From a virus: a stretch of DNA of 48,626 bases. Location of the stretch: IMG/VR virus record IMGVR_UViG_3300025529_000003; one strand, 5' to 3'. The notes below the pieces were generated by a model that made no database searches, was not told the DNA's origin, and worked only from the letters and a program-made list of their open reading frames with translations. Positions 3,974 to 9,371 of the stretch are shown in pieces. Position numbers and translations under genes: made by a program. How positions within the stretch are numbered: position 1 is the first letter of the stretch; every line of letters starts with the position of its first letter.

Positions 3974-4783
3974 TCAAAATAGCGTCAGTTGCCGGCCGCA
4001 ATGTTCCGCCGCGACCGGGTTGATCCAGAGGACTTCCTCTGTGGCCTTCCCGCGTTGTGCGAGGGCCTGCCTTGTCTCCCGGTGCCAATGGCGTAGTCGT
4101 TCATCATATAATCGGTTCGCATATCCCGATAACAGCACCGGGCCCGGGTGATCATCGAGCAGATCCAGTAACTCCAGATGCTCATCGTCCGTCATCTCGT
4201 GCCGATAAATCGCTCCGCTTCTGGTTTCGAGAACGTATGGCGGATCTGCGAATATCAAGACGTCCGGCCGCCGATAACGCTTGATCAACTCTGTCGCTTG
4301 CTGCTGTTCTATCTGTACCCCTCGCAGACGTTCGGTGTATGTCATGATTCTGTTCGGAATGTCGCCCCATTGATGCGCAGGTTGAGGGTCCGACACATCC
4401 ATGACACTCCTCCAACCCGTCCGTGCGCACATTTTCGGTCCCTGACCCATCCAGCACCGCACCAGGAACCTCCGCGCTCGCTCGAGCTCGTCCAACTCCC
4501 CCCCCGATTGGTAGGAGATGTAATATTCCTGCCGGCTGTACGGTGTCCAATAGATCAGCCGCGCCAGCTCGTCAGGTCGGTCCCGGATCACCTTAAAAAG
4601 GTTGACCACATCCCCGTCAAGGTCATTGATGGTTTCGAGCGTGGCCGGAGGTTTGTTGAAAAACACCGCGCCGCTGCCGAAAAACGGCTCGAGGTACGTT
4701 TGATGTGGCGGCATGTGCGAGATGATCCAGTCGGCCAGACTCCACTTCGATCCGGGATAGTGCAATATGCGTGGTGCGGTCAT
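3974..4783 (-). CDS. dam: Dam-family DNA N6-adenine methyltransferase.
   Basis: N-terminal YPGSKWSLADWI, FFGSGAV (AdoMet site) and FADPPY catalytic motif. Confidence 0.85.
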   Translation of the reverse strand: MTAPRILHYPGSKWSLADWIISHMPPHQTYLEPFFGSGAVFFNKPPATLETINDLDGDVVNLFKVIRDRPDELARLIYWTPYSRQEYYISYQSGGELDELERARRFLVRCWMGQGPKMCARTGWRSVMDVSDPQPAHQWGDIPNRIMTYTERLRGVQIEQQQATELIKRYRRPDVLIFADPPYVLETRSGAIYRHEMTDDEHLELLDLLDDHPGPVLLSGYANRLYDERLRHWHRETRQALAQRGKATEEVLWINPVAAEHCGRQLTLF

Positions 4784-4796
4784 GGCAGCCCTCCTA

Positions 4797-5561
4797 CTAC
4801 AAAATCAACGACGTCGGTATGACCGACAACATCTTTTCATGCGCCAATCGATACATGTCCTTCTTGATTTCGAAGCCATAGGCGTGGCGATTGATTTCGA
4901 CCGCCGCTCTCAGGGTGGAACCGCTGCCTGCGCAGGGGTCAATCACGACGTCGCCAACGTCCGTGAATATCTCGATAAGTCGTTTCAATAGCGGAACCGG
5001 CTTCTGGGTGGGATGGATCTTCGGACTATCGTCCGTCTCCCACTTGAACCAATTCAGGATCATACGGCCATCGTTGTTGAACTTCGGAAGCTTGTCACGA
5101 TACAGAACGAGTCCGTATTCCGTCGCGCCCACAATCTTCATGTTCGCCTTCAGCACTTGGGGCGACGATGATTTGATGAACACCAGCGGGATGTAATTCT
5201 TGAATCCATATTTCTGTCCTTGCTCAACAACGAGTTGAAGCTGCTGGAAGGAACAAAACACGATCATGGCCGGCGCCCTTCCCCGTTCCTTCGGCTCCTT
5301 GATCAGCATCTTCGAACAGAAGTGCATGAACTCTGGAATCTTGAAGTTTTCGTCGGTATCGAAGAAGGCTTTCCCCGCCTTCTCGGACTCGCCTTTTGAA
5401 AGATCGCCATCCACATACCACTCGGGGTTGCTGGCATACGCATTGCTGCCGAGGTTGTACGGAATGTCAGCTATGACCAGTTGAGCCTTTGGGATGTTGT
5501 ATCGCTTGTAATTTTGGAAATGGTCGTTAAAGAGCTGGCATTTGATCTCCATGTTACTCAC
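4797..5561 (-). CDS. Beta-class N4/N6 DNA methyltransferase.
   Basis: ADIPYN (DPPY-type) precedes HPTQKP and IDPCAGSGST. This order is typical of the N6_N4_Mtase family. Confidence 0.85.
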   Translation of the reverse strand: MSNMEIKCQLFNDHFQNYKRYNIPKAQLVIADIPYNLGSNAYASNPEWYVDGDLSKGESEKAGKAFFDTDENFKIPEFMHFCSKMLIKEPKERGRAPAMIVFCSFQQLQLVVEQGQKYGFKNYIPLVFIKSSSPQVLKANMKIVGATEYGLVLYRDKLPKFNNDGRMILNWFKWETDDSPKIHPTQKPVPLLKRLIEIFTDVGDVVIDPCAGSGSTLRAAVEINRHAYGFEIKKDMYRLAHEKMLSVIPTSLIL

Positions 5562-5565
5562 CCAC

Positions 5566-5805
5566 TTATCCCGATCGTCTCCTCTGCCAAAGTCCGTATT
5601 GACTGGCCCACCCGATGACTGTTGGTACGGTCACACCCAATATGTCCGCAATCTCAGACGGCGTATGATACGGCCACAAGCGAATCAGATCATAGACCTT
5701 GCGCGAGCTGAGCGTCCGGCGCTGCAACTCCCGGGCGGCTGCGTAGCGTTCGTCGAGCGGCTGGCTTTCGTCGATGGCGATCTCATAGAGCTGTTTCTTA
5801 CTCAT
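5566..5805 (-). CDS. Small HTH DNA-binding protein.
   Basis: 79 aa. C-terminal PSEIADILGVTVPTVIGW helix-turn-helix. Confidence 0.55.
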   Translation of the reverse strand: MSKKQLYEIAIDESQPLDERYAAARELQRRTLSSRKVYDLIRLWPYHTPSEIADILGVTVPTVIGWASQYGLWQRRRSG

Positions 5806-6797
5806 AGTTCACACACCATACCTTCAACGAAGCAGCCGCATCCGCCGATGTCGAAAAGGTCAATCTGCAAGTCATTCTCGACATCGAAGTGAAGGTCTCT
5901 GATGGGATACGGTTTCCCGTCACGCTTCATAAAGGCGTACTGCCGAATCTTCATGTACTCGCCGGTTGCTGCGCCTGCCGGGTGAACGTAAGGTTTCGGT
6001 TTCGGCGCACGATCATAGAAATAATCGCGGTATGCATCGTCCAACTCCTGGAGCATCCGTTCCCGAACATGATCCGGGATGCGCTCTTGTTCCGGCACCG
6101 TGTCGTCCATGATGTACCGATACGCTGATACGCAGACTTTCAGGTGATGCTCCTGCTCCATGATCTTCTTGAACACATCCGGCATGGCTTGTTTCAGCAG
6201 CTTGTAGTGCCCCTGCCCGGCCTTCACGCAGCGGCCTGCGCAGTTGTTGTGGGCGAATCCGTAATCGTATAAGGCCGGTTGCCGGATACCCCACTTTTTC
6301 AGCGCCTCATCTGGCCAGATGTTGTGCTCGATCATGGGCATTTCGACGCGGAACGGCTGCCAGTTCTTCCGAATAGCTGGTTCCCGGTGCATCTCGTCGA
6401 ACCCGATGCCGAAATAGAGCGTCGCATCGGTCACGAAATCTTCCTGCTTCAGGCATTCCCGGTTTCGCCACTTCTCGATGGGCGGCCGCTTCCCGCGCTT
6501 GAGGAAATCTGCCGCCACGCGCATCTTCAGGATTTTCGAGCACTCACCGAGCATCGAGTTGAACACCAGTTTCTTCTCGAACATGAGTTGGATAGGGTTA
6601 AGCCCCATGCTGTGCGTCAGGAGCGGCAGCCGCAGCTTGTCTGACGCTTCATGGATAAAGCGGTATAAGTCCTCATGCTCCCAAAGTGTGTCCGTAAAAT
6701 AGAGCACGATGTTGTCGTCGGGATACCGCTCCAGAACCCAATCTGCTACTGCGAAGCTCGACTTGCCACCGCTGAAGAAGATGATGTGGTTGCGCAT
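5802..6797 (-). CDS. PAPS-reductase-like PP-loop ATP-pyrophosphatase family protein.
   Basis: N-terminal IIFFSGGKSS (SGGxDS-type PP-loop). C-terminal Cys cluster GGCGCFVEGMVC. Confidence 0.7.
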   Translation of the reverse strand: MRNHIIFFSGGKSSFAVADWVLERYPDDNIVLYFTDTLWEHEDLYRFIHEASDKLRLPLLTHSMGLNPIQLMFEKKLVFNSMLGECSKILKMRVAADFLKRGKRPPIEKWRNRECLKQEDFVTDATLYFGIGFDEMHREPAIRKNWQPFRVEMPMIEHNIWPDEALKKWGIRQPALYDYGFAHNNCAGRCVKAGQGHYKLLKQAMPDVFKKIMEQEHHLKVCVSAYRYIMDDTVPEQERIPDHVRERMLQELDDAYRDYFYDRAPKPKPYVHPAGAATGEYMKIRQYAFMKRDGKPYPIRDLHFDVENDLQIDLFDIGGCGCFVEGMVCEL

Positions 6798-6798
6798 C

Positions 6799-8595
6799 TC
6801 AATTCACCACCGCTGGCTGTTCTTCTACTTCCGGCAGCACCCATACATCATTCCAGCTCATCTCAAAGGTGATGCCGGCCTCAACCTGTGCGATTGCCAT
6901 CATGATCACATTGCCCATGGCCTCAGCAGCCGGCACCGGAACTGCATTCCCGATGTATTCCCGGGCCTTCGCGTCGCTGCATCCATCGAGCTGGAACGGA
7001 CGCCCATCAGGAAGGTGAGTCGGGAACCCCTGCAGCATCGCCAACTCGTAGGTCGTCAGCGGCCGGTGCCATGTGCCGTCCTCGGCGATGATTACCCATG
7101 TTCCTGACTCGTTGTCCTCCGGGATTCGCGGGTCGGCGACGGCCGCCGCGCCGGCGTGGATGTCCCCGGCGCCGATCACGGTCTTCGCTGGCTCGTCCCA
7201 CTTTTGGACGCCCATCGTGCCAGACCGGGGCGAGCAGCCAATGCGCGGGTCGGCAACACTCGACGCCGACTGCATGATCCTGCTGTTGCCTCGGATCGTT
7301 TTCGCCGGTTCGTCCCAATCCTGGACGCCGTAGCAGTCGGGCATCAACTCAGTCTTCACGCGCGGATCTGCTATCGCTGGCGCGCCGCTGCCGAATCTCG
7401 TGCCGGTCACAGTCGGCGAAGGTTCGCCCATCCGCACAACTCGGTACACGCCCGGATGCTTGCCTTCCTGAGCCCGCAATCGTGGGTCACTGATCGTTAT
7501 CGCACCGTTGTTCGGCCTGTGTGCACCCGTGACGCACGGGGCGGGCTCATCGTACCGGACCACTCGGTATATTGCGGCGTGTCCGTTCGCATCGAGCCCA
7601 ATGCGCGGGTCCGATACCGCCGCGGCGCCGTTGCTCCGCCCAGGGCCGGCTGTGGCCGTCACCGTGCGGGATGGATCGTCCCACTGTTCGACCGCGTATG
7701 CGCCGCCGCGCGCCTCGTGCTCAATCCGGTACCGCTGCCAGTCGATAGCATTCAGATCCCGCCAGTCTCCGCCGGCCGGTATCAGCGCCAGCCGCACCCA
7801 CGTTTTCCACTGGAGCCGAGGCAGCCGGTGCATAGGGCCGCCGGCCGGGTCGTCCGGAAGCGGAAGACTGCCGATGACATCACCGATCGTTTTGAGTGGC
7901 TTCTTCGGTGGCAGGTAGCACCAATTCGGCACGCGCTTCTGGTTCCGGGCCAGCAGCAGGAACCGCATCCGGTTCTGGCCGAGGCCGCCGATCTCACCGA
8001 GATTGTGGTCGGACCGCATGTCCACCGCATACCCGTACCGCTCAAGCAGGCGCTTGATGCGTTGCAGGATGTCGGCCCCCCGGGACGTGATTCGTGGAAC
8101 GTTCTCGAAGTGGATGAAAGCCGGCAGCTCGCCGTCGCCATAGAGGCGGCACGCCTCGAGGCAAAGTTCCAACCCACGGATCGTCAGCAGGTTCAGCGCC
8201 TGATATTTCTCCGACCGCGCCGATTTCTCCGGCAGCAAGCCGCTGAAGCCTTTGCATGGCGGGCTTAAGAACAGGTAGTCCGGAACCTGCTCTTTGAACG
8301 CCTGCCAAATGTCCCGCGGCGTCGCCTCCTGCCACTCCGCTGGCGGCTCGTGGCCGAACCATTTGCGGTACTGGTCCCGGTCGAACAGGTCCATCTGCAC
8401 GGCCGTTTGCTCGCCGGTGATGATGTCGTGATTCCGGCAGGCGACCGGGTCGAAGTCAATCGAGCAAAGGATTTCCCAACGGTATACCTTTCCGTATGCT
8501 TCGACAAGCGAACGCTTCAGACCCGCTGAGAATCCCCCGATGCCGCCGAACAGGATTGCTGCTGTGCGAATCTCCGACTTCATGCGGTCGAGCAT
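6799..8595 (-). CDS. DNA cytosine-C5 methyltransferase with an expanded variable region.
   Basis: Motifs FGGIGG (I), SPPCKGFS (IV), ENV (VI), QNRMRF (VIII), GNAVPVP (X). The variable region is about 190 aa. Confidence 0.85.
   Translation of the reverse strand: MLDRMKSEIRTAAILFGGIGGFSAGLKRSLVEAYGKVYRWEILCSIDFDPVACRNHDIITGEQTAVQMDLFDRDQYRKWFGHEPPAEWQEATPRDIWQAFKEQVPDYLFLSPPCKGFSGLLPEKSARSEKYQALNLLTIRGLELCLEACRLYGDGELPAFIHFENVPRITSRGADILQRIKRLLERYGYAVDMRSDHNLGEIGGLGQNRMRFLLLARNQKRVPNWCYLPPKKPLKTIGDVIGSLPLPDDPAGGPMHRLPRLQWKTWVRLALIPAGGDWRDLNAIDWQRYRIEHEARGGAYAVEQWDDPSRTVTATAGPGRSNGAAAVSDPRIGLDANGHAAIYRVVRYDEPAPCVTGAHRPNNGAITISDPRLRAQEGKHPGVYRVVRMGEPSPTVTGTRFGSGAPAIADPRVKTELMPDCYGVQDWDEPAKTIRGNSRIMQSASSVADPRIGCSPRSGTMGVQKWDEPAKTVIGAGDIHAGAAAVADPRIPEDNESGTWVIIAEDGTWHRPLTTYELAMLQGFPTHLPDGRPFQLDGCSDAKAREYIGNAVPVPAAEAMGNVIMMAIAQVEAGITFEMSWNDVWVLPEVEEQPAVVN
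7120..7701 (-). repeat. Five tandem intragenic TRD-like modules of about 35-40 aa each, inside the C5-MTase.
   Basis: Protein repeats W/Y-D/G-(D/E)P-x-x-T(V/I)-x-G...(A/S)DPR(I/L/V), aa 299-492. Confidence 0.8.
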
Positions 8596-9371
8596 TGTTC
8601 CGCATCCCTTTCTTCCAGCATTTCTTTGAGCTCGTCGGCCTGTTTCAAGAGGTAATGCACCTTTCGTTCAATTCGCGGATCACGCCCATTACCGAGCGCT
8701 TTTCGCAGTTCGTCTTTCCAGTCCTGACTCCATGTACTGAGCCATATCCCGTAATCTCTTAAAATTGCACTGACCTCGTTGAGAAGTTGCAGACTCTCCT
8801 TCTTGCCCTGCATCCTCTCAAGTTCACGCCGCAATTCCCCGATTTCTTTTGTCACTTCGATTTCGAAATGCCGACCGAGCTCTTTCCGCTCTTTCTTGTC
8901 CTGCAGGTACGCCTCAATGAACTCGCGCCGCGTCGAGAAAAACGGATGACGGTCATTCTCGAGCCTGGTCATGATGACGTACATAAGCAGATTCGAAGGG
9001 ACGTTTACATTCCGATACGCCGGCTTTCGCTTCGTCACGAGCGCTTCCGTCTCGGGAGTGTAATAGATCAGTCCAACTTCATCCGGCAGCTCGTCGGGCT
9101 GGATCAATCCCTTCGGACAGGCGAATGCGAATTGATGGCAATTCTGCAGGTACGCCGGCCATTTATCGTCCCGCACGAAATCACTCCGATCGACCTTTAT
9201 CTCGTAGGCCGTGATGCACGGATGCGCCCAGGATTTTTTGATGGCGAGCGCGTCGATGCGATGATGCTCGTAGCCGGTTGGACCGGTCTTGACCTCGGTG
9301 AGAAAGAAATCTTCACGATGCCGCTTGCTCAACGCTCGCTTGATCATGTCCGCCCGGACCTTCGACCTCAT
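8580..9371 (-). CDS. MmcB-like PD-(D/E)XK nuclease family protein.
   Basis: IDALAI...AYEIKVDRSDFVRDDKWPAYL core. Confidence 0.6.
   Translation of the reverse strand: MRSKVRADMIKRALSKRHREDFFLTEVKTGPTGYEHHRIDALAIKKSWAHPCITAYEIKVDRSDFVRDDKWPAYLQNCHQFAFACPKGLIQPDELPDEVGLIYYTPETEALVTKRKPAYRNVNVPSNLLMYVIMTRLENDRHPFFSTRREFIEAYLQDKKERKELGRHFEIEVTKEIGELRRELERMQGKKESLQLLNEVSAILRDYGIWLSTWSQDWKDELRKALGNGRDPRIERKVHYLLKQADELKEMLEERDAEQCSTA

Follow-up and report, generated by a model that had tools for sequence, protein, structure and literature searches.

A phage C5-cytosine methyltransferase with five tandem recognition-motif units: a probable multispecific enzyme of an apparently undescribed family

The viral contig IMGVR_UViG_3300025529_000003 of IMG/VR (48,626 nt; hereafter the window, meaning the whole stretch of DNA that was analysed) encodes a C5-cytosine DNA methyltransferase (MTase) in which a segment of about 40 amino acids (aa) is repeated five times. 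An earlier note on this DNA, made from the sequence alone, had proposed that the repeats resemble target-recognition domains (TRDs) and that the protein is a candidate multispecific enzyme. The question raised by the locus is whether one catalytic core is served here by several recognition elements with targets of their own, or whether the repeat has another meaning. To our knowledge, textbooks have treated multispecific cytosine MTases as a curiosity of a small number of Bacillus subtilis phages, and the multispecific C5-MTases that a 2025 review cites, as a case of one enzyme set against many restriction systems, come only from temperate Bacillus phages. The sequence comparisons described here suggest, with a probability of roughly 0.6, that the window protein is an orphan anti-restriction C5-MTase in which one catalytic core is combined with several alternative recognition cassettes and acts on several targets. 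It would be a probable multispecific enzyme of a distinct, apparently undescribed family.

The window protein is a complete C5-MTase with all catalytic motifs (Table 1). Its match to the Pfam family PF00145 (C-5 cytosine DNA methylase) reached 62.2 bits (E = 7.6e-17), where the curated cut-off is 22. A match to TIGR00675 (dcm) was partial and fell below cut-off (44.9 against 100.65 bits), and NCBIfam had no model specific to the family of the window enzyme. In the translation, motifs I (FGGIGG, aa 16-21), IV (PPCKGFS, aa 112-118, with the catalytic Cys114), VI (ENVP, aa 164-167), VIII (QNRMRF, aa 207-212), IX (RPLTTYELAMLQGFP, aa 511-525) and X (GNAVP, aa 549-553) follow one another in canonical order and are invariant across aligned homologues, and the C-terminal motifs IX and X could also be aligned to the M.HaeIII, Dcm and DNMT1/MET1 chains. 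The variable region opens with a constant stretch (aa 218-296) that contains invariant columns at L244, P245, P247, G253, L261, K264, W266, L269, I272, G276, D277, W278, R279 and L281. AlphaFold2 was run twice, with a mixed alignment of 91 sequences and with an alignment of 66 sequences of colinear architectures only, and both runs were confident for aa 4-290 and 490-580, with a predicted local distance difference test (pLDDT) score of 70-94 over the latter region. The top Foldseek matches of the model, confined to the catalytic domain, were C5-MTases at a probability of 1.00 and E values of about 1e-10 to 1e-8, and included the prophage CP-933R MTase (3g7u), M.HaeIII (1dct), M.HhaI and DNMT1/MET1. 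A sequence search of solved structures with the whole protein and the family profile found no match at E <= 1; the alignments to solved structures comprised C-terminal fragments only and were weak, to M.HaeIII, Dcm and DNMT1.

Table 1. The C5-MTase gene of the window, its parts and neighbouring genes (positions are those of the window)
Feature	Position	Strand	Basis
C5-cytosine DNA methyltransferase gene, 598 aa + stop	6799..8595	-	open reading frame list, PF00145, Foldseek
Catalytic domain, aa 1-217	7945..8595	-	motifs read from translation; AlphaFold pLDDT mostly >=90
Constant first part of variable region, aa 218-296 (PLPxPGD..GGPMHRLPRLQWKTWVRLALIPAGGDWRDL...)	7708..7944	-	invariant columns in alignments
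Unit 1, aa 297-339, type B: GGAYAVEQWDDPSRTVTATAGPGRSNGAAAVSDPRIGLDANGH	7579..7707	-	unit profile, clustering
Unit 2, aa 340-380, type F: AAIYRVVRYDEPAPCVTGAHRPNNGAITISDPRLRAQEGKH	7456..7578	-	unit profile, clustering
Unit 3, aa 381-418, type C: PGVYRVVRMGEPSPTVTGTRFGSGAPAIADPRVKTELM	7342..7455	-	unit profile, clustering
Unit 4, aa 419-457, type D: PDCYGVQDWDEPAKTIRGNSRIMQSASSVADPRIGCSPR	7225..7341	-	unit profile, clustering
Unit 5, aa 458-495, type A: SGTMGVQKWDEPAKTVIGAGDIHAGAAAVADPRIPEDN	7111..7224	-	unit profile, clustering
C-terminal constant part, aa 496-598: unit-like remnant SGTWVIIAEDGTWH, motifs IX and X, stop	6799..7110	-	translation, alignments
D12-class Dam-like adenine methyltransferase, 269 aa	3974-4783	-	PF02086, 90 bits; phrog_56
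N6_N4-class DNA methyltransferase, 254 aa	4797-5561	-	PF01555, 86.9 bits; phrog_67
Phosphoadenosine phosphosulfate (PAPS)-reductase-like gene	5802-6797	-	PF01507, 27.9 bits; phrog_424
MmcB-like gene	8580-9371	-	PF06319; phrog_5429 'DNA repair protein'

Five tandem units of 38-43 aa each lie between motifs VIII and IX and occupy positions 7111-7707. The five-fold repeat that the earlier note had claimed at 7120-7701 falls within this span and was confirmed, and the peptides quoted there (WDDPSRTV, YDEPAPCV, MGEPSPTV, WDEPAKTI and WDEPAKTV) were all found, each followed by DPR[ILV]. The units share the framework Y-x-V-x-x-[WYM]-[DG]-[DE]-P-[SA]-x-[TC]-[VI]-x-[GA]-(9-12 residues)-[VI]-[AS]-D-P-R-[ILV], with Met in unit 5 at the position of the leading Tyr of the other four, and are 31-51% identical to one another in pairwise protein comparison. 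In a leave-one-out analysis, each unit scored 39.5-50.6 bits against a profile hidden Markov model (HMM) of the other four, while the best of 1000 composition-matched shuffles per unit reached 7.0-12.6 bits. Tandem Repeats Finder detected no DNA-level tandem repeat over the array, and the codon-aligned DNA of the units is only 38-58% identical, falling to 21-47% at third positions. This low identity, together with the null result of Tandem Repeats Finder, excludes assembly collapse or expansion as the origin of the array. The repeat is real and old, with third codon positions near saturation, and since the units have diverged to this extent their duplications are taken to be ancient. A recent duplication of units, as the earlier note had suggested, was ruled out on the same grounds; unit types are, besides, shared between genera. 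The remnant SGTWVIIAEDGTWH (window 7069-7104, aa 498-509), located between unit 5 and motif IX, is conserved throughout the family and looks like a unit's Y-x-V strand with the TL loop missing. The GC content is 63.4% for the MTase gene and 67.2% for the array, against 55.4% for the whole window, and GC at third codon positions of the gene is 0.68-0.79.

The nature of the unit was addressed by comparison with the TL motif of the TRD, for which the consensus (YFW)X(RK)X5P(STCA)PT(ILV)(TASV)X5-16H(PFYWL) has been given (PMC2413257). According to the same source, DNA is contacted by residues in and around this motif, which served Trautner's group to delimit the TRDs of multispecific enzymes. Unit 5 and the C-terminus of the window protein align to M.HaeIII 228-324, with VQKWDEPAKTVIGAGDI pairing with VRQWNEPAFTVQASGRQ (M.HaeIII 228-244). 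The unit HMM matches M.HaeIII exactly once (aa 228-243) and matches a monospecific CATCGATG methyltransferase (sequence from PMC11954522) once, at 'MEWDKPSPTITTQCFGFGNGRF', the alignments to these two TL motifs scoring 10-14 bits. This bears out the statement of the earlier note that the element occurs singly in ordinary C5-MTases: M.HaeIII (GGCC; PDB 1DCT, 3UBT) and the CATCGATG enzymes (PMC11954522) have one TL motif, whereas the window protein has five. A 'PGG.WRD' element found upstream of the single TL motif in the CATCGATG enzyme (PMC11954522) is also present in aa 218-296 of the window protein. In units 1-4 an aromatic residue precedes the Pro by eight positions (Met in unit 5), P-[SA]-x-[TC]-[VI] is retained in all five, and the ...x-P end motif follows 11-13 residues on. 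Only two units have the Pro that precedes T in the TL consensus, the TL consensus ends in H-P whereas the window units end in D-P, and only unit 5 lies within 50 aa of motif IX, the TL motif being placed by consensus 10-50 aa before it. Taken together, the units appear to be a divergent version of the TL motif, and no textbook match to it.

For comparison with the known multispecific enzymes, the reference genes of M.SPRI, M.Rho11sI, M.H2I and M.Phi3TI were taken from GenBank records. These four, along with MtbP of SPbeta, are likewise phage-borne orphan C5-MTases with one catalytic core, and like the window protein they have a single variable region between motifs VIII and IX with several tandem TL modules of about 30-50 aa. 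The SPR, phi3T, rho11s and H2 enzymes contain 2-4 TL motifs spaced 30-48 aa apart (SPTITT, SHTLSA, ATTLTS, SPTLTT and PAFTVNT among them), while the window protein contains five, spaced 43, 41, 38 and 39 aa. At least two tandem TRD modules in a single variable region, the arrangement of the SPR/phi3T-type enzymes, are therefore found in the window protein. The proposal that the modules are TRD-like was upheld in so far as the units appear to be TRD-core (TL motif) elements whose number and spacing parallel those of the multispecific Bacillus phage enzymes, and the impression that the array is more regular than those of SPR and phi3T also proved correct, with five motifs at 38-43 aa against 2-4 at 30-48 aa. 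The window units differ from the Bacillus phage TRDs in being shorter and far more regular and in having a common D-P-R end motif, and the window family extends to 12 units and to phages of Bacillota and Proteobacteria, against 2-4 units in the Bacillus phage enzymes. In the latter multispecificity is proven; for the window enzyme it is proposed from comparison.

The variation of units among relatives was analysed by clustering the 701 units of 121 close proteins. About 11 main unit types and 42 architectures were obtained, and the same type occurred twice in one protein in only 1 of the 121. The window protein has the architecture B-F-C-D-A. Position 2 is taken by F, G or L and the third place usually by C, and the types D, E, H, I, J, K and O are combined variously, in an order that is sometimes permuted (DE vs ED). 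At 88-96% catalytic-domain identity, relatives already show the architectures BFA, BFDA, FDA, BFIA and BFCA. P0001 is BFCDA like the window protein, P0004 and P0002 are BFDA, P0008 and P0021 are BFA, P0016 is FDA, P0013 is BFIA and P0017 is BFCA. Unit 3 (type C) is missing from P0008, P0004, P0002 and P0016, all within this range of identity; unit 4 (type D) is missing from P0008, P0021 and P0017, and type I stands in place of unit 4 in P0013. In P0016 (91% catalytic-domain identity) the first unit is a stub (…HEPSG–EDTAVSDPCVGLD…, SDPC) with the look of a decaying or pseudo-unit. The aligned close relatives otherwise show clean whole-unit differences with junctions inside the conserved G-A-[IV]-x-V-A-D-P-R motif. 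At the DNA level one junction was examined: two viral contigs, L114 and L117, have a single in-frame gap of 237 nt relative to the window gene that removes units 3 and 4, and its junction lies within the conserved GA.xVADPR motif. By these alignments, the recent events are loss, gain or exchange of pre-existing units, with a turnover that is fast relative to sequence divergence.

The distribution of variation within the units was then considered in a unit alignment of 37 columns. Columns 14, 17, 19-24 and 28, which are mostly in the loop after T-V, have an entropy of 1.3-3.0 bits between types and of 0.2-1.1 bits within types, while the x-W-D-E-P columns 8-12 are variable even within types (1.7-2.1 bits). 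Column 21, with a within-type entropy of 0.21 bits, is occupied by R in C, D and F units, by D in A and E units and by G in B and G units. Its counterpart in M.HaeIII is R243, which we presume to be a base contact, and in the window protein R361, R400, R439 and D478 fall in this column. Such variation between types combined with fixation within types is the pattern expected of specificity-determining positions, and the columns concerned are candidates for these. The best-matching units in other proteins diverge about as fast as the catalytic domain, which indicates that the units are under comparable purifying selection.

The window protein belongs to a large group. Among 8000 scored candidates from a search of 5.8 billion proteins, at least 7680 relatives were found at E <= 1e-10; the closest among the matches listed, at 97% identity, is a protein from a Thermobacillus metagenome-assembled genome, and many of the next come from Paenibacillus, Brevibacillus and Cohnella. 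The 120 best relatives have 3-8 units each by iterated profile count, and protein length tracks unit number in steps of about 40 aa per unit, from 514-528 aa for three units to 718 aa for eight. When cluster representatives at 50% identity were searched exhaustively, 943 clusters were obtained at E <= 1e-3, and among the best 150 of these the number of units ranged from 0-2 (mostly fragments) up to 12. Confirmed related loci, found with two peptide patterns per collection, numbered 359 among GTDB species genomes and 142 among IMG/VR viral contigs. At the DNA level, a megablast search of the window against phage and E. coli genomes gave no match, and relatives were found at the protein level only. 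Members in sequenced phages include orf41 of phiCTX (L165; annotated 'hypothetical protein', 5 units), gp34 of Sinorhizobium phage PBC5 (L166; 8 units), a protein of Marinobacter phage PS3 (L167; 4 units) and gp13 of Pseudomonas phage H66 (L168; 4 units), and the array is uncommented in the published genomes of all four. In these proteobacterial members the TL threonine is often substituted (…SGAV…, …AGAI…), and the Pseudomonas, Marinobacter and Sinorhizobium phages share a distinct conserved terminal unit type, GHYGV…[KR][YH]D.G.[WF]SVADPR. Seven relatives (P0129, P0136, P0143, P0159, P0185, P0192 and P0259) are 830-1200 aa long and have an extra N-terminal region of about 470-700 aa. A full-text literature search, with the M.BssHII and M.(phi)BssHII papers and REBASE outside its scope, found no publication describing the family, and a characterised member may exist.

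A mechanism can be proposed for an enzyme of this design. A cassette of about 40 aa would consist of a short strand Y-x-V, the segment W-D-E-P-[SA]-x-T-[VI]-x-G, a type-specific loop and the closing G-A-x-x-[VI]-[AS]-D-P-R, with short flexible linkers between successive cassettes. Only a single cassette would be docked at a given time, between the scaffold of aa 218-296 and the catalytic domain, completing the small domain, and the docked cassette would read the bases around the flipped cytosine, with the outcome that several short sequences are methylated. Expression from the replication/early module along with two adenine MTases would leave the progeny DNA protected in advance against several Type II systems. 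In-frame recombination between the GA.xVADPR-coding stretches of different units would delete, insert or exchange whole cassettes. The enzyme class with its motifs and catalytic fold, the repeat and its relation to TL-motif TRD cores, the variation by cassette, one recombination junction and the phage setting are direct observations, and from them we infer the function of each cassette, the existence of distinct cassette targets and the docking mechanism; the non-redundancy of types, the type-specific loops and the turnover of whole units would fit independent recognition cassettes. The wider proposal is of an undescribed phage and prophage family, in Bacillota and in phages of Pseudomonas, Marinobacter, Sinorhizobium and Achromobacter, with 1-12 exchangeable mini-TRD cassettes of 40 aa that each have their own target and are rewired in close relatives by in-frame recombination at the ADPR-coding motif; in this extended form we consider the odds to be about even.

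Several observations weigh against a multispecific enzyme and have to be set beside those described above. In both AlphaFold2 runs the array (aa 293-490) had pLDDT values below 50 and almost no secondary structure, so that modelling, also envisaged in the earlier note, yielded no confident fold of the array and hence no structural support for a TRD-like docking of the units; the low confidence would also fit flexible beads on a string that become ordered only on docking or DNA binding. The units deviate from the TL consensus in having V, I or M for [RK] at Y+2 and an invariant D for H. BLASTP of the window protein against M.SPRI showed no significant similarity (best E = 0.061), and the unit HMM scored at most 1.2 bits on the SPR, phi3T, rho11s and H2 enzymes, in which the E-P-A-x-T-V core alone aligns. 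Membership of the SPbeta-group family was rejected on these two results, and the window protein is like the SPR, phi3T, rho11s and H2 enzymes in architecture but lies outside their family; the alignment to SPR/phi3T-type enzymes advocated in the earlier note thus supported a parallel of architecture and not one of sequence. In distant relatives and clades the unit types are no more conserved than the catalytic domain, whereas higher conservation of units across clades would be expected if the same targets were shared. In 115 of the 121 close proteins the array opens with type B, and in 119 it closes with type A; these near-fixed places hint at structural roles: because the two types are almost constant, they may be structural and not separate specificities. 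Lastly, the mostly colinear order of types could stem from descent, with deletions, from one ancestral array.

The constancy of the end units is also the strongest argument for an enzyme that is monospecific or has few specificities, in which a single unit would serve as the TRD, probably the terminal one of type A that lies next to motif IX as in ordinary enzymes, and the rest would be pseudo-TRDs or spacers. The conserved terminal type seen in the proteobacterial phage clade too, the decayed first unit (SDPC) of P0016 and the array left unfolded by AlphaFold all agree with such an enzyme, and Trautner's group is said to have described inactive pseudo-domains in Bacillus phage enzymes. Inactive remnants would be expected to decay, however, and the internal units that are kept speak against this explanation: they evolve no faster than the catalytic domain, the residues of their type-specific loops are nearly fixed across genera, types are almost never duplicated, and full-length enzymes maintain arrays of up to 12 units. 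We regard it as the main rival, but as unlikely. Somewhat less probable still is a composite DNA-binding module, in which the units would bind jointly to backbone or groove and confer affinity, processivity or a relaxed specificity for short sites in place of discrete targets. The common framework (D in 699 of the 701 units and P in 652, plus G-A and T-V), the short, hydrophobic-poor and predicted flexible nature of the units, and the existence of very relaxed phage enzymes (M.EcoGII, mentioned in the 2025 review) would suit it, but there is only one flipped base and catalytic site, where the TL motif normally lies and where five equivalent copies cannot fit; the number of units varies from 1 to 12 without other changes, and generic binding does not predict type non-redundancy or type-specific conserved loops. 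It seems very improbable that the array plays no part in DNA recognition and serves as a flexible linker or for protein interaction. Its low pLDDT, its near lack of regular secondary structure over aa 293-490 and its richness in Gly, Ala, Pro and Ser could be read in this way, but the motif is strongly conserved over hundreds of sequences, homology connects the unit with the TL motif by which M.HaeIII contacts DNA, and without the units no TRD core would be left between motifs VIII and IX. An artefact of assembly or sequencing, a possibility that the earlier note had raised, is excluded by the DNA divergence of the units (38-58% identity), the null result for DNA-level repeats, the intact reading frame, the five-unit gene present at 96-97% identity on independent contigs (P0001 at 97%, L121 and L085 at 96-97%) and the occurrence of the architecture in phiCTX, PBC5, PS3 and H66.

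The genomic setting of the gene was examined in the window and among the 80 best related genomic loci, which were used for counts of neighbouring genes. The window represents a temperate siphophage or prophage, with an integrase, small and large terminase, portal, major head protein, tape measure and tail proteins, and its replication genes comprise a DnaB-like helicase, a replication initiator, RecT and an SbcC-like protein. The C5-MTase gene is located in the replication/recombination module, in one same-strand run with the order MmcB-like gene, C5-MTase, PAPS-reductase-like gene, small helix-turn-helix gene, N6_N4 MTase and D12 MTase; a DUF1064 gene is also among the genes flanking the C5-MTase. 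No restriction-endonuclease family was matched among the scanned gene products of the window, those of the flanking genes included, and in these scans the enzyme is an orphan of a temperate phage with no cognate endonuclease seen. The PAPS-reductase-like gene begins 1 nt past the C5-MTase stop codon, and with 1 nt between stop and start translational coupling of the two is likely; a homologue of it was found in none of the 80 related loci, which marks it as no conserved partner. The MmcB-like gene upstream overlaps the C5-MTase start by 16 nt and is found in 5 of the 80 loci. We take its family to belong to the PD-(D/E)XK nuclease-fold superfamily, and in the present data nothing ties the gene to a restriction function. 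A homologue of the Dam-like MTase lies beside the C5-MTase gene in 19 of the 80 loci. The three DNA MTases of different classes (D12, N6_N4 and C5) together look like a methylation 'island' in the replication module (window 3974-8595, minus strand). Away from this module, a stretch of low GC (39-47%) surrounds the integrase at about 18-24 kb.

Avoidance of palindromes was assessed over the whole window. The observed/expected ratios of 4-base palindromes were 0.99 for GGCC, 1.17 for CCGG, 1.05 for GCGC, 0.94 for CGCG and 1.13 for GATC, with none avoided. Among 6-mers, CAGCTG (0.21), AGATCT (0.17), AGGCCT (0 observed) and ACGCGT (0.23) were weakly depleted, a depletion that is non-significant after multiple testing and not diagnostic.

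Two further systems offer themselves for comparison. M.BssHII and M.(phi)BssHII from Bacillus stearothermophilus H3 were reportedly described as multispecific C5-MTases by Schumann et al. 1996 and Sethmann et al. 1999, and M.BssHII is said to have five specificities. They come from a thermophilic host of the Bacillales, one of them being prophage-associated, and this host range is near that of the window protein's relatives in Thermobacillus and the Paenibacillaceae; the two enzymes may or may not belong to the window family. The 80 best genomic loci included no Geobacillus entry. Type I HsdS subunits provide an analogy only. As in the window family, whole recognition domains are exchanged by recombination at conserved flanks, but HsdS belongs to another family and fold, serves an adenine target and has two TRDs per subunit that are used simultaneously.

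Tandem TRDs in one C5-MTase have been known from Bacillus phages; the family of the window protein is much larger and spans more taxa, and its cassettes are smaller, more regular and far more numerous. In many phage genomes its members are annotated only as 'hypothetical' or as plain methyltransferases. The small size and regularity of the cassettes, together with natural variants that are one cassette apart, make the assignment of a target to each cassette directly testable, and the family could give a recognition code as well as engineerable parts for the targeted writing of 5-methylcytosine (5mC). For the reading of methylomes, a single prophage gene could explain several 5mC motifs of a host genome. 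If the proposed reading is true, arrays of recognition modules would be a widespread phage counter-defence, and the family would amount to a combinatorial anti-restriction system of natural origin whose cassettes could serve, as a library already at hand, to decode sequence recognition by C5-MTases.

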